Both the position numbers and the translations under genes were made by a program. A DNA stretch of 64,000 nucleotides from an uncultured Planctomycetota bacterium. Its GTDB lineage: Bacteria; Planctomycetota; Planctomycetia; Gemmatales; Gemmataceae. The first letter of the stretch is position 1. Each line of letters starts with the position of its first letter. The stretch spans positions 96,001 through 160,000 of the forward strand of contig CAWKHF010000005.1 of assembly GCA_963849325.1 (NCBI GenBank). The letters run 5' to 3'. Shown here piece after piece: positions 38,118-61,349 of this stretch. Below the pieces are notes generated by a model, which saw nothing but the letters and a program-made list of their open reading frames with translations, was not told the DNA's origin and did no database searches.

Positions 38118-38173
38118 GGCCCGCGGGCGAAATCGCCCGCGGGCCGAGAGTGACCGTAAAGGGTCGAGAGCAA
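38118..38173 (-). promoter_or_regulatory. conserved post-stop hairpin element, copy after G1
   Basis: GGCCCGCGGGCG-aaat-CGCCCGCGGGCC at 38118-38145, 28 nt from the stop codon. Confidence 0.85.
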
Positions 38174-41100
38174 TTAGTGGTTGTTGTTGCCCCCTCCACT
38201 GGAACTGCCGCCGTTGGAACTGCTGCTAGTGGAATGGTTGAGGATGTTGAGGGCCAGTTCGACGCCGAGCAGTTCGAAGAACTGCCCGAACGGTCCGGCG
38301 GCCTGCAGGTTGACGGCGATGTCGGCTTGCACCAGCGAGCCTGCCGCCGAGTTTCCGGTCAGGATGTCGAACACAACGTCAAAGCCGTCGAAGATCAGCT
38401 GCAACTCCGGATTGGCAGCTGGCATGGGCGTCGGCGTCGGCGTCGGCGTGGGAGTGGGAGTGGGCGTCGGGGTCGGAGTGGGCGTCGGCGTCGGAGTGGG
38501 TGTCGGGGTGGGCGTCGGCGTCGGAGTGGGTGTCGGGGTGGGCGTCGGCGTCGGAGTGGGCGTCGGCGTGGGAGTCGGAGTGGGCGTCGGCGTGGGCGTC
38601 GGGGTTGGGGTCGGCGTCGGAGTGGGCGTCGGCGTGGGAGTCGGAGTGGGCGTCGGCGTGGGCGTCGGGGTTGGGGTCGGCGTCGGAGTGGGCGTCGGCG
38701 TGGGAGTCGGAGTGGGCGTCGGCGTGGGCGTCGGGGTTGGGGTCGGCGTCGGAGTGGGCGTCGGCGTCGGCGTCGGTGTTGGGGTCGGAGTTGGGGTCGG
38801 CGTCGGCGTCGGAGTGGGCGTCGGCGTCGGCGTCGGTGTCGGAGTCGGTGTCGGTGTCGGAGTGGGCGTGGGACTGAATTCGGTGGCGCCGATGTCGATG
38901 ATGGCACCCTTGCCGCCGTTGATGACACGCGGGAAGCCCGTGCCACGCTGATCGAACGGACCCGTCAATGCCGTCGCCGCGTTGTCACCCGCATCGATGC
39001 CCGGACTGCCCGACTGCAACAGGATGGTCTGCGTCAGACCACCGTTGTTGCCCAGCGTGCCAATGCCCGCGGCCACGTTGGTGATGTCGCCGTGCGCCGA
39101 GCTGAAGCCGAAGCTGCCGGCGGAGTTGCCGATCAGGTTGTGGTCGCTGCTGTTGACCGAACCGAAGTAATCCGGCGACGAGGCGGCGTTGTTGAGCGCC
39201 ACCAGCGTGTTGGTGAGGATGACGTTGGCATTGGCGTTGTTGAAGACGCCGCCGCCCTGGCCGACGACGGCGCCGCCCGCCGTGCCCGGCGTGCCCGGCT
39301 TGCCGCCCACGCCCGGAGGCGCGCCGGCATCGCCGCCGTTGCCGCCGAAGCCCTGCAACGCCGAGTTGTAAGCGACGGTGACGTTGGTCAGCGTGACGCC
39401 GCCGGTGCCGGGTGTTACCAGCACGAAGACGCCGCCGCCCTTGACGGCACCGCTGTTGCCGCCGGCGCCGCCGCTGCCGGCCGTGCCTTCCGTGGCCGAG
39501 CCACCCGTGCCGCCATTGCCGCCGTTGCCCGCCGTGGCGGTGTTGTTGGACATGGTCGAGTTGGTCAGTTGCGTCTGACCCGAGCCGAACAGGTACGCAC
39601 CGGCACCCTCGGCGATGCCGCCGGCGCCGCCGGTACCGCCGGCGCCGCCGACACCACCGTTGCCGCCGTTGCCGCCGTTGCCACCGACGCCGCCGGTGAC
39701 GGAGTTACCCGACAACGTCGAGTCGAAGATCTTGCTGGGCTGGCCGGTGCCGCTGTTGGTGACGTAGACGCCGCCGCCGTAGGCCGAGCCGCCGATGCCG
39801 CCGCCGCCCGCGCCGCTGCCCAGACCGAACCCGATCGAGGCACCCGCGCCGCCGTTGCCGCCGGCGCCGGCGGTGCTGAGGTTGCCCGTGACGGACGTGT
39901 TGGTGATGCTCAACTGCAACGTGGTCCCGGCCGCCCCGAAGAAGTCCACGCCGCCGCCGAACGTGCTGCCGCCGAAGCCGCCCTTGCCGCCCAGAGCGCC
40001 GGCCGAGTTGCTGGCGCCGCCGGTGCCGCCGGCGCCGCCGACATCGATGTTACCCGTGACGGTAGACTGATCGACGGACACCTTGAGGGTGCTGGCGCCG
40101 ACACTAAAGCCGCCGATGCCGCCGCCGCCGCCCGAGGCGCCCGAGCCGCCGACGCCGCCGCCGCTGGTCGCACCGCCGCCGGTCCCACCAGCGCCACCGT
40201 TACCGCCGGCGCCGCCGGTGACCGTGTTGGTTTGCACGGTCGTGCCCGCATTGACCGCCACGTTGAGAGTGGCGCCGCCCGTGGCCAACGCTTCGATGCC
40301 GCCACCGAAGCCAAAGCCACCCGTGCCGCCGACGCCGCCGCCGGAGCCGGCGCCGCTGAGTCCATTGCCTCCCGCTCCACCAGCCCCGCCCGTCACCGTG
40401 TTGCTCGACACCGTGCTAGCATTGCCCGTCGAGGTGGACTTGCCCACCGTCACGCTGCCGCCGCCGCTGAGGAACACGCCGCCGCCCTGCGCCGTACCGC
40501 CCGTGCCGCCGCCGCCGCCCTTGGCGCCGGCCGCCGTGGCCGCGAAGCCCTGGCCGCCCAGGCCGCCCTGGGCCGAGTTGCCCGTCACCGTCACGCCGGT
40601 CAGGCTCAACTGCATGGTGGCGCCGCTGACGTACAAGCCGCCGCCCTGCGCCCACCGCCGATCTGGCCGGCGATGCTGGTCTTGTTGCCGTTGGCTCCGC
40701 TGCCGCCGATCGCCTTGTTACCCGTGATCGAGCTGGCGTCCAGCGTTATCGAGTTGGAGGCCGCGGTGATGAGGACGCCGCCGCCCTCGCCGAAGCCGGC
40801 CGCCGCCCCGCCCGCGACGCCGTTGCCGCCCAGCGCCTGGTTGTTGCTGATGACCGTGCCGTTGACAACGGTCAACTGACCGCCGGAGACGAAGACGCCG
40901 CCGCCCTCGCCGTCCTTGCCGGCGTTGCCGACCGCCTTGTTGTTCTGCACGACGGCGTTGCTCAGCGTCACGTTGCCGCCCAGGTCGAGGATGGCACCGC
41001 CCCGCGCCTCCGTGTTCGTGGTCACGCCGTTGTCGTGGGCCGTGCCGTGCTGGAGGGTCAACGACTGGAAGGTCACGTTGGTCGGGCCGGTCAGCAGGAA

Positions 41101-41442
41101 GGCGCGGTTGTTGGCGCCGGCGGCGTCGAGGACAACGTCGCCGGCCTTGCCGGTGGCGCCCTGGATGACCAGCGTGTGCGGCGTCGTCACCGTCAACTGG
41201 CTGGACAGGTTGTAGGTGCCCGCCGACAGGACGATGGTGTTGGTCGCGTCGGAGGCCGGAGCGTTGACGGCGTTGATGGCCTGCTGGAGTTGCGTGGCGT
41301 TGCTGACGTCGAAGACCGCTGGCGCCAGACGCTCTTCCAGCGATTCCAGTCGCGGCAAGACCGTGCGTCGTGCCGGGGACCGCTGCACGCGGCCCTTCTG
41401 GCCCGGACTCGTGAACTTGCGGAGCCATTTGTTGCGAAGCAT
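38174..41442 (-). CDS. G1: Gly-rich surface protein paralog; frameshift near 40650
   Basis: ORFs 40606-41442 and 38174-40636 join into the full paralog: [48 protein letters not shown], (PT)n and C-terminal module. Confidence 0.9.
38426..38873 (-). repeat. (Pro-Thr)n hexamer repeat in G1; equivalent tracts at about 34359-34458, 41813-42320, 48197-48563, 51464-51898, 54789-55074, 57955-58376 and 61618-62007
   Basis: ACN-CCN hexamers with variable third positions, in frame in every gene. Confidence 0.95.
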
Positions 41443-41495
41443 AAGACACCTCCAGGATCAGGGGAATATGGGACAACACGTTACTGCGTCGAGAT

Positions 41496-60700: not shown

Positions 60701-60953
60701 CCGTCAACTGGCTGGACAGGTTGTAGGTGCCCGCCGACAGGACGATGGTATTGGTCGCGTCCGAGGCCGGAGCGTTGACGGCGCTGATGGCCTGCTGGAG
60801 TTGCGTGGCGTTGCTGACGTCGAAAATGGCCGGCGCCAGACGCTCTTCCAGCGACTCCAGTCGCGGCAAGATCGTACGTCGTGCCGGGGACCGCTGGAGG
60901 CGGCCCTTCTCGCCCTGGCTTGTGAACTTGCGAAGCCATTCGTTGCGAAACAT
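57751..60953 (-). CDS. G7: Gly-rich surface protein paralog; frameshift near 59350
   Basis: Start MFRNEWLRK after GGAGGAG; the halves align to G5. Confidence 0.9.
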
Positions 60954-61293
60954 GAGACTCCTCCACATCCGAGGGAAACGAAAGGAGACCAGGGGGTCCG
61001 TCCCGCGCGAACGGGGAGACACTCCCCGCGCCGCCGTCAGGGCCGCAACCAGCTCTGTCAGCCCCACTTCTCCACCTCCCCATAAAGGGGAGAAGGGAGA
61101 GCGGATACATCCGTGTGGAGGAGGACGGAATCGAGCCGCTCCGTCCGGAGAACATCCTGTTCACTTCTCGATGTCGAAATGCACGCCGTTCCGAGGAACT
61201 CACGGACGGCGCCCGTTTCCTTCCTTCCTTGCCAGGAACGGAGAATGAACCGGGTGCCTGCCCCGCATCCTGCTCGGGCGGCGCGGAGATCCG

Positions 61294-61349
61294 GGTCCGC
61301 GGGCGAAATCGCCCGCGGACCGAGGATTACAGTAAAGGTGCCAAGAGCG
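61294..61349 (-). promoter_or_regulatory. conserved post-stop hairpin element, copy after G8
   Basis: GGTCCGCGGGCG-aaat-CGCCCGCGGACC at 61294-61321, with a compensatory T-A pair. Confidence 0.85.

Follow-up and report, generated by a model that had tools for sequence, protein, structure and literature searches.

We analysed a 64,000-nt stretch of DNA, hereafter the window, from an uncultured planctomycete of the family Gemmataceae, whose genome comprises 8.16 Mb in 14 contigs with 65% GC. Coordinates are given in window numbering (1–64,000, equivalent to C5:96001–160000) unless a contig is named. Our subject is a short hairpin element found behind each of eight paralogous genes, G1–G8, that form a tandem array on the minus strand; it consists of a 12-bp all-GC stem and a 4-nt loop, 28 nt overall. 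An initial annotation of the window had proposed eight such inverted repeats, and a search for GGCCCGCGGGCG-N4-CGCCCGCGGGCC with up to three mismatches recovered them at 38118, 41496, 44948, 47746, 51176, 54529, 57695 and 61294 only, each with zero to two mismatches, while 100 dinucleotide-preserving shuffles of the window yielded zero matches. Almost all details of that annotation proved accurate. With all eight genes on the minus strand, every hairpin falls 3′ of its gene, on the sense strand. The array and its hairpins are listed below, with loops and base pairs written for the mRNA.

38174..64000, minus strand: tandem array of eight paralogs G1–G8, about 850–1,150 aa each; G8 runs off the window
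38118..38145, minus strand: hairpin behind G1 (last array gene); perfect 12-bp stem, loop AUUU, 28 nt past TAA, −29.8 kcal/mol
41496..41523, minus strand: hairpin behind G2; perfect stem, loop AACC, 28 nt past TAA
44948..44975, minus strand: hairpin behind G3; two mRNA-strand G-U wobbles (pairs 3-26 and 9-20), 182 nt past the stop
47746..47773, minus strand: hairpin behind G4; loop GGUU, the reverse complement of the common AACC, and two mRNA-strand A-C mismatches
51176..51203, minus strand: hairpin behind G5; perfect stem, loop GCUU, 28 nt past TAA
54529..54556, minus strand: hairpin behind G6; one U-G wobble (pair 3-26), loop AACC, 28 nt past TAA
57695..57722, minus strand: hairpin behind G7; loop-closing pair A-C, giving an effective loop of 6 nt, 28 nt past TAA
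61294..61321, minus strand: hairpin behind G8 (first array gene); compensatory U-A at pair 3-26, loop AUUU, 28 nt past TAA

The paralogs encode large surface proteins and share one domain order: an N-terminal segment, Gly-rich repeats, a choice-of-anchor Q domain (NCBIfam NF041518; E = 1.5e-14 and 7e-16 in the two proteins scanned), a long Thr-Pro linker and a C-terminal domain of about 65 aa. A Pfam scan of full-length G5 and G6 matched no family. The C-terminal domain, found behind Thr-Pro linkers, carries the motif DGF.L..D.L.GN...PFG.FFEL.GI and occurs 11 times in this genome; following the choice-of-anchor Q domain, it may serve for anchoring or sorting and be specific to the lineage. G3 has neither the linker nor this domain and ends in His-Asp/Gly-His repeats (45158–45260), after which come REP-like (repetitive extragenic palindromic) inverted repeats and then a remnant spacer with its hairpin. 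G1 (38174–41442), G2 (41552–44892) and G7 (57751–60953) are each broken into two overlapping open reading frames (ORFs) by a frameshift. A DUF1501 gene at 23055–24559 is likewise split in two ORFs, so the array frameshifts may be assembly errors and not marks of pseudogenes.

51235–51462 and equivalents, 34134–34307 in the window, C1:495300–495485, C1:501410–501595 and C2:110794–110955: sites of the C-terminal domain

Scanning the whole genome with up to four mismatches added five copies to the eight in the window, giving 13 close copies; three further loose matches sit inside unrelated sequence. A more diverged 14th copy was found on contig C6.

C1:495251, C1:497976, C1:501361, C1:505333 and C5:330755, sense strand of family genes: five further close copies
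C6:760701: diverged copy 30 nt behind another Thr-Pro-linker gene; outer 9 bp identical, tenth pair A-U, 9-nt loop

A covariance model built from the 13 close copies scored them at 46–54 bits, and the next best hit in the genome reached 26 bits. Two of the additional copies, on C1, lie 18 nt past the stop behind the same C-terminal domain (44–49% amino-acid identity to the query). The other three stand 30–48 nt from the stop, behind genes that run only a little beyond the Thr-Pro linker or behind a degraded gene end. Thus, all 13 close copies and the C6 copy are on the sense strand, 18–48 nt past the stop of a family gene, except for the copy behind G4, which is separated by an insert resembling a miniature inverted-repeat transposable element (MITE), and the one behind the rearranged end of G3. 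The genes upstream of all copies carry the Thr-Pro linker or the C-terminal module of the family, and no copy follows an unrelated gene. One of the C1 genes with a hairpin has a different N-terminal passenger domain, indicating that the hairpin travels with the 3′ module and not with the whole gene.

Seen from the protein side, the genome holds 22 choice-of-anchor-Q matches, of which 10 have a close hairpin and 1 has the C6 copy. Of the remaining 11, four are followed within 150 nt of the stop by a perfect stem of 7 bp or more (three REP-type, one of 8 bp). The C-terminal domain's two most distant carriers bear instead a long REP-type hairpin, 7 nt past the stop in one and 14 nt in the other. 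The sequence of the element is distinct from the abundant REP-like families of the genome. The initial annotation had allowed that it might be a genome-wide dispersed REP; with 13 close copies, all behind one gene family, and a drop from 46 to 26 bits below them, the element is confined to a single gene family and is no dispersed repeat. Immediately 5′ of the stem the window copies read CCUC and those elsewhere AGUC or AGCC, leaving no tag motif common to all, and no target-site duplication is shared by all copies.

Searches beyond this genome returned no convincing relative. Rfam cmscan of 36000–64000, with E up to 1, placed no family at the hairpins; its only hits in the region were chance matches to microRNA models, at about 47838–47917 in the MITE-like insert and at 45174–45259. 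Allowing up to two mismatches, the pattern had zero matches in 10 genomes of the same genus and two single loose matches, with two mismatches each, among 30 other relatives; the two genomes concerned belong to further genera of the same family. Searching one genome per species for the exact pattern turned up 23 loci in unrelated GC-rich bacteria, one site each (the palindrome matches on both strands); we judged these to be convergent, generic terminator-like hairpins because several have partial T-runs behind them. Over 100 genomes of the family, the best foreign score of the covariance model was 38 bits, and the five foreign sites inspected, in four loci, were set aside as generic GC hairpins with no sign of a family gene upstream (frames were read for two sites at one locus). 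A relative of another genus carries two intergenic copies of a 13-bp GC hairpin of its own, GGCCCGCGAGCGC-TTCC-GCGCTCGCGGGCC (G023:C254 1108–1143 and 2030–2065), which resembles the element; the frames upstream show no sign of the gene family. The C-terminal domain gave one weak match in 40 relatives (E = 3.4e-4), unrelated on inspection, and a metagenome scan with its alignment gave two loci, both spurious.

The stem is far better conserved than the sequence around it. We compared the seven window copies that follow the C-terminal domain, taking third codon positions from the adjoining 64 codons. Nucleotide diversity (π) was 0.067 over the 24 nt of the stem, with 5 of 24 columns variable, compared with 0.26 at third codon positions (41 of 64 variable), 0.205 at first and second positions and 0.61 in the loop, where 4 of 4 columns vary. 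On variable columns the stem differs from third positions with a Fisher p of 3e-4 and evolves about four times more slowly, contrary to the possibility, raised in the initial annotation, that the element is no better conserved than synonymous sites of the paralogs. Even within identical amino acids, third positions are 79% identical, whereas the stem is 93% identical. When the six copies followed by another paralog were aligned with gaps, π in the stem was 0.078; the spacer between stop and stem (0.27), the loop (0.55) and the leader to the next ATG (0.335) were all more diverse. Window and C1 copies agree at 84% of stem positions, as compared with 63% of third codon positions, and their spacers defy alignment. 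That the stem stays constant while loop and flanks vary freely speaks for selection on it and against plain gene conversion.

Covariation points the same way. In the 13-copy alignment, standard pairs occupy 97.4% of 156 pair cells, a share that falls to 34–49% when the 3′ partner is slid by 1–3 columns. Both partners have changed in 3 of the 12 stem pairs, affecting 7 cells. Pair 9-20 goes from G-C to A-U in the five copies outside the window, pair 2-27 from G-C to U-A in C1:505333, and pair 3-26 from C-G to U-A in copy 61294, where the initial annotation had rightly recorded a compensatory C-G to T-A change. The G-U wobbles that it had assigned to the mRNA strand at 44948 and 54529 are also present. 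They are intermediates of two of these changes, with U-G at pair 3-26 in both copies and G-U at pair 9-20 in 44948, and imply the routes C-G to U-G to U-A at pair 3-26 and G-C to G-U to A-U at pair 9-20. The observed covariation score was reached by 1 of 500 shuffles, although related sequences can beat shuffles without any structure, and the copies are paralogs. Taken together, the alignments indicate that selection keeps the stem paired.

That the hairpin is instead a functionless relic of an ancestral 3′ end, kept alike by recent duplication, gene conversion and self-correction of the palindrome in replication, we regard as improbable. Such a history would suit a set of copies that are all paralogs in one genome, with no related element or module in 40 relatives (pattern and protein searches), 100 family genomes (covariance model) or the metagenome scan, and an array in which three of eight genes are split by frameshifts, so that parts of it may be decaying. 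However, conversion tracts would homogenise the loop and flanks too, and these have π of 0.55–0.61 (loop) and 0.27 (spacer) against 0.07–0.08 for the stem; nor would a relic be expected to hold its stem between window and C1 groups that have diverged so far at third positions and in their spacers.

A second alternative places the function in the DNA: the palindrome could be a site for a dimeric protein or a recombinase, a hotspot bordering an exchanged 3′ module, or a small mobile palindrome. The initial annotation had described each arm as self-palindromic, making the element a direct repeat with a 16-bp period as well as an inverted one. In the window copies this is so, each arm holding the palindrome GCCCGCGGGC, repeated at 16 bp. 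In the five other close copies, which have the arm GCCCGCGAGC, self-palindromy is lost and the complementarity of arm to arm is kept through the double change, which favours a hairpin over paired protein-binding sites. In favour of a role at the DNA level, the hairpin accompanies the module of Thr-Pro linker and C-terminal domain onto genes whose N-terminal parts differ, the loop type (AUUU versus AACC-like) tracks the kind of downstream flank and not the upstream flank, and one copy is apparently flipped. That copy is 47746, whose loop had been called inverted; its opposite strand does carry the usual AACC loop and two G-U pairs. Its palindrome centre seems to have been turned round, most simply by a DNA-level accident that weakened the mRNA-strand stem.

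The genome is, moreover, full of mobile-looking palindromes and encodes one Y1 transposase. Yet the element has only 13–14 copies, none behind an unrelated gene, and they share neither a tag nor a target-site duplication. No integrase or recombinase was found among the 24 ORFs scanned beside the array, in window 1–38 kb; beyond the far end of the window only about 1.2 kb was read. Overall, a DNA-level function is unlikely, if not as unlikely as a relic, and the suggestion that the element is a protein-binding or recombination site delimiting gene cassettes finds no support, given that no recombinase came to light among the 24 ORFs scanned in the first 38 kb, that the supposed cassettes are paralogs and that the self-palindromy of the arms is not conserved. 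We likewise dropped an integron-like reading. Integron attC sites are imperfect palindromes placed, much as here, 3′ of every unit in an array of uniform orientation, and they measure 57–141 nt with extrahelical bases; by contrast, the element is a 28-nt hairpin with a perfect stem, its units are paralogs with their own ribosome-binding sites (RBSs), and the scanned ORFs contain no integrase.

The distance from stop codon to stem was the next feature that the initial annotation had singled out. It is exactly 28 nt behind six of the eight genes, those ending at 38174, 41552, 51232, 54585, 57751 and 61350 (G1, G2 and G5–G8). G4 ends at 47951, and its gap of 177 nt equals 28 nt plus a 149-nt MITE-like insert, without which the distance is 28 nt again, as had been proposed. 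The TAAG duplicated around this insert includes the G4 stop codon, and the insert belongs to a dispersed family that BLAST matched 150 times in the genome, 67 times over 120 nt or more (palindromic copies are counted on both strands). G3 is a genuine exception. Its hairpin (44948) lies 182 nt past the stop because His-Asp repeats and REP-like inserts have taken the place of the C-terminal module.

47802..47950, no strand assigned: MITE-like insert of 149 nt between the G4 stop and the 28-nt spacer, flanked by duplicated TAAG
38146..38173, minus strand: example of the 28-nt spacer, with equivalent intervals before other copies; 3′ half ACUGUAACCCUC-like
51122..51175, minus strand: example of the conserved leader from hairpin to next gene start; starts with ACCUC and ends in the RBS GGAGG and ATG

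Within the spacer, the 3′ half is better conserved than the 5′ half (π of 0.19 versus 0.35). The CTGTAACCCTC-like segment described upstream of the stem is present in all eight window copies and missing from the five copies elsewhere in the genome. Spacers come in two forms, one cancelling pair of 1-nt indels apart. We did not retain the 28-nt distance as a length constraint: it rests on this single indel pair, which carries no statistical weight, and other copies stand 18–48 nt from their stops.

On the other side of the stem, a conserved leader of about 55 nt follows six of the eight window copies, its first 11 nt well conserved (π of 0.15). ACCUC directly 3′ of the stem (51171–51175) is complementary to the RBS of the next gene, GGAGGU (51126–51131), about 40 nt downstream, and has equivalents behind five other copies; CCUC also precedes the stem. 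A scan of 44000–62000 for sigma-70-like promoters, the one consensus covered, found none, and a leader motif picked out by eye as a promoter, TCGACG-N14-TATCCT, was dropped as unconvincing. The hairpin is kept with the upstream gene where the downstream sequence differs, namely at 38118, at 61294, whose downstream sequence is unrelated to that of the other copies, and in all C1 copies. It is therefore part of the 3′ end of the gene and not of the leader of the next.

These features bear on the possibility that a fixed stop distance, together with ACCUC, masks the RBS of the next gene and so links termination of translation to initiation. With the insert removed, the distance is exactly 28 nt in seven of eight copies, and the two spacer forms differ by one cancelling pair of 1-nt indels. 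RNAalifold pairs ACCUC with GGAGGU in six copies, and in one copy the spacer too pairs with the RBS of the next gene. The predicted helix, however, spans about 40 nt with 5 bp, lacks covariation and is disrupted in one or two of the six copies; ACCUC is absent behind the two window copies that lack an adjacent paralog and behind all C1 copies; spacing elsewhere is 18, 30, 38 or 48 nt; and a single indel pair is no statistical evidence. Translation coupling of this kind is thus highly improbable. Of the options put forward in the initial annotation, the one that combined termination or translation coupling is weak, though possible, in view of spacing that varies over 18–48 nt and a sole sign of length constraint in that indel pair.

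The lack of a U-tract behind every copy, already noted in the initial annotation, was borne out, and a terminator scan found none at the hairpin sites. Typically, the 8 nt after the stem read ACCUCGAC, and other copies have UCUUCGCC, CGGAUCUC or GCUUCC there. To place this in the context of the genome we used rough gene calls (ORFs of at least 450 nt, chosen by GC content at third minus second codon positions; 5,459 calls covering 78% of the genome). Within 110 nt past the stop, perfect hairpins of at least 8 bp occur at 733 of 5,459 gene ends versus 108 coding controls, stems of at least 10 bp at 564 versus 13, and stems of at least 12 bp at 510 versus 5. The median distance from stop to stem is 19 nt (quartiles 7 and 33), and only 33 of 687 scorable gene-end hairpins have at least five T in the next 8 nt. 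A U-less hairpin 18–30 nt past the stop is thus the usual gene end in this genome, and the element is unusual only as a recognisable sequence family tied to one gene family.

Canonical terminators do exist here. Short perfect hairpins followed by at least five T number 59 in the genome, against about 11 expected, and textbook hairpin-plus-T-tract terminators stand behind several tRNA genes (C10:444744, C10:523162, C12:348732, C9:457138 and C5:814869), including those for tRNA-Ala and tRNA-Asp (C10) and tRNA-Glu (C12). Canonical intrinsic termination is used at least for stable RNAs, and most hairpins at the ends of protein genes are U-less. Rho is also encoded. Like a canonical intrinsic terminator, the element is a GC-rich stem-loop shortly past the stop (12 bp, −20 to −30 kcal/mol, 18–48 nt); unlike one, it has no U-tract of about 7–9 nt directly after the stem. 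Since it has no U-tract and hairpin-plus-U-tract terminators are used elsewhere in the genome, it is probably not an efficient stand-alone terminator.

A U-less hairpin could nevertheless terminate transcription alone or with NusA, NusG or another factor, in which case each paralog would be its own unit with a promoter in the leader of about 55 nt. We consider this unlikely, while giving it more weight than a function at the DNA level. A hairpin stands behind every array gene, the last one included, the well-conserved start of the leader could hold a promoter element, and U-less hairpins dominate the gene ends of this genome. In the TERMITe study, many mapped Streptomyces 3′ ends also lie at such hairpins (PMC12207403). 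What speaks against such a terminator, besides the canonical examples behind tRNA genes, is the flank itself, which offers no U residues to destabilise the hybrid, and the failure of the scan for a sigma-70-like consensus to find a promoter in 44000–62000. In the one GC-rich system tested, mycobacterial RNA polymerase did not terminate at U-less hairpins in vitro (PMC3993855).

The reading that we favour, and hold to be slightly more probable than not, is that the element is a family-private stem-loop of the 3′ untranslated region (UTR) that sets and protects the 3′ end of the mRNA and does not terminate transcription alone. It corresponds to the first option of the initial annotation, an RNA-stabilising or RNA-processing stem-loop. 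We infer that RNA, and not DNA, is the functional form and that the effect is 3′-end protection. On transcription, the hairpin (about −25 to −30 kcal/mol) would form 18–48 nt past the stop, clear of the terminating ribosome. It would then act as a barrier to 3′-to-5′ exonucleases and define the mature 3′ end of the message of each gene. The primary transcript itself might be ended further downstream by Rho, or the end might be cut from a longer read-through transcript. REPs stabilise upstream mRNA. In Streptomyces, mapped 3′ ends are described at long stable hairpins with only 3–4 U in the next 10 nt, at a median of 4 nt from the stem base; exonuclease trimming, Rho and processing are the causes that the authors consider (PMC12207403). 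E. coli REPs near a stop codon can stall ribosomes (PMC12306157).

As to how the element came to stand behind so many family members, the best explanation is that it belongs to the 3′ module of a lineage-specific surface-protein family and is copied along with that module. A stronger version would make the hairpin a dedicated cis-element of an anchor module of planctomycete surface proteins, formed by the Thr-Pro linker, the domain of about 65 aa and the hairpin. It would serve either as a border for exchange of the module between genes with unlike passenger domains or as a 3′-UTR signal coupling the close of translation to protein export or sorting. This we think very improbable, though less far-fetched than translation coupling.

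Several observations weigh against a protective RNA hairpin. All copies are paralogs in one genome and so are not independent samples, and no orthologous copies were found in other genomes, with the consequence that all evidence of conservation comes from paralogs. Template switching at the DNA level can make compensatory-looking changes in a palindrome in one step. The bias of perfect hairpins towards 3′ ends is mild on our rough gene calls: intergenic regions carry 0.47 per kb when convergent, 0.37 when tandem and 0.27 when divergent. Nor does the strand preference settle the matter. All 13 close copies fold on the mRNA strand at −20.3 to −29.8 kcal/mol, the weakest antisense fold being −15.7, and of the eight asymmetric copies five are more stable on the mRNA strand (by 1.4–8.4 kcal/mol), among them 44948 (−24.1 versus −15.7 kcal/mol antisense). 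In the other three the antisense strand is more stable, by 0.2, 0.8 and 5.1 kcal/mol, and copy 47746 is clearly weaker on the mRNA strand (−20.3 versus −25.4 kcal/mol antisense). Single-sided changes on the mRNA strand comprise six G-U and four A-C, two of the latter at the loop-closing pair and one at the terminal pair. We did not use these wobble counts as proof of strand, as six to four is not significant; the strand evidence as a whole tilts weakly to the mRNA strand, short of significance.

Other features of the surroundings can be noted briefly. The window also encodes proteins of Pfam families such as PSCyt2, PSD1 and DUF1501, in keeping with Planctomycetota. The genome contains 1,162 non-overlapping perfect hairpins with stems of at least 10 bp and loops of 3–8 nt, 625 of them with stems longer than 16 bp; the latter fall in several REP-like families, with arms such as GCCGCGACGCGCAGCGGAGCGCGG and GAGCCTGAAGCGTAAGCGAAG (for example, window 45036–45142 and 47825–47934), and many REP-like palindromes lie within 60 nt past stop codons. 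The single match to a Y1 transposase resembling REP-associated tyrosine transposases (RAYTs) is at C2:573643 (Y1_Tnp), on another contig and with no shown link to the hairpin element. Dense tRNA arrays occur at C12:838476–839475 (about 12 genes) and C4:433741–435104 (about 14), out of an ARAGORN total of 92 tRNA genes.

Among known systems, the REPs of enterobacteria and the bacterial interspersed mosaic elements (BIMEs) that they form come close. They too are short, GC-rich extragenic palindromes without a U-tract, at the 3′ end of a cistron or between cistrons (transcription being predicted in our case), are thought to block 3′ exonucleases and stand far enough from the stop to avoid collision with the ribosome. 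In a 1988 review, Higgins, McLaren and Newbury are said to have treated REPs as 3′ stabilisers of mRNA. REPs differ in being dispersed in hundreds of copies behind unrelated genes, whereas the element has 13–14 copies in one gene family. REPs also have a tag of the GTAG or CGTC type and a cognate Y1 (RAYT) transposase; here no tag is shared by all copies, and the genome has one Y1_Tnp match, on another contig.

Two groups of hairpins from other GC-rich bacteria are also alike. The U-poor hairpins of Streptomyces, as presented in the TERMITe atlas (PMC12207403), are GC-rich, long and stable, have few or no U and stand tens of nucleotides past the coding sequence; the proposed 'I-shaped' terminators of mycobacteria, disputed in PMC3993855, are long stable hairpins with few or no U in a high-GC genome. 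Unlike either, the element is a conserved sequence family and no anonymous hairpin, and it comes from another phylum.

The comparison drawn in the initial annotation with intercistronic stabilising hairpins, by analogy with the cip-cel operon, holds in that a hairpin follows each same-strand cistron and the next RBS comes about 55 nt later. The puf and malEFG operons are further examples of operons with such hairpins. The array differs in that its units are paralogs and not subunits needing a set stoichiometry, and in that the element also stands behind the last array gene and behind lone family members elsewhere in the genome.

The element is thus a lineage-private member of the known REP-like or terminator-like 3′ hairpins of GC-rich bacteria and does not represent a new mechanism. 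Its interest lies in being a clean case of a selected non-coding RNA structure, in which the stem is fixed, the loop is free, and compensatory pairs and G-U intermediates can be read among the paralogs of a single genome. A genome with mostly U-less hairpins at gene ends and canonical terminators at some tRNA genes bears on how GC-rich bacteria form the 3′ ends of their mRNAs. For this phylum, the family offers a defined test object, with natural stem variants, for 3′-end mapping and mRNA-stability assays.

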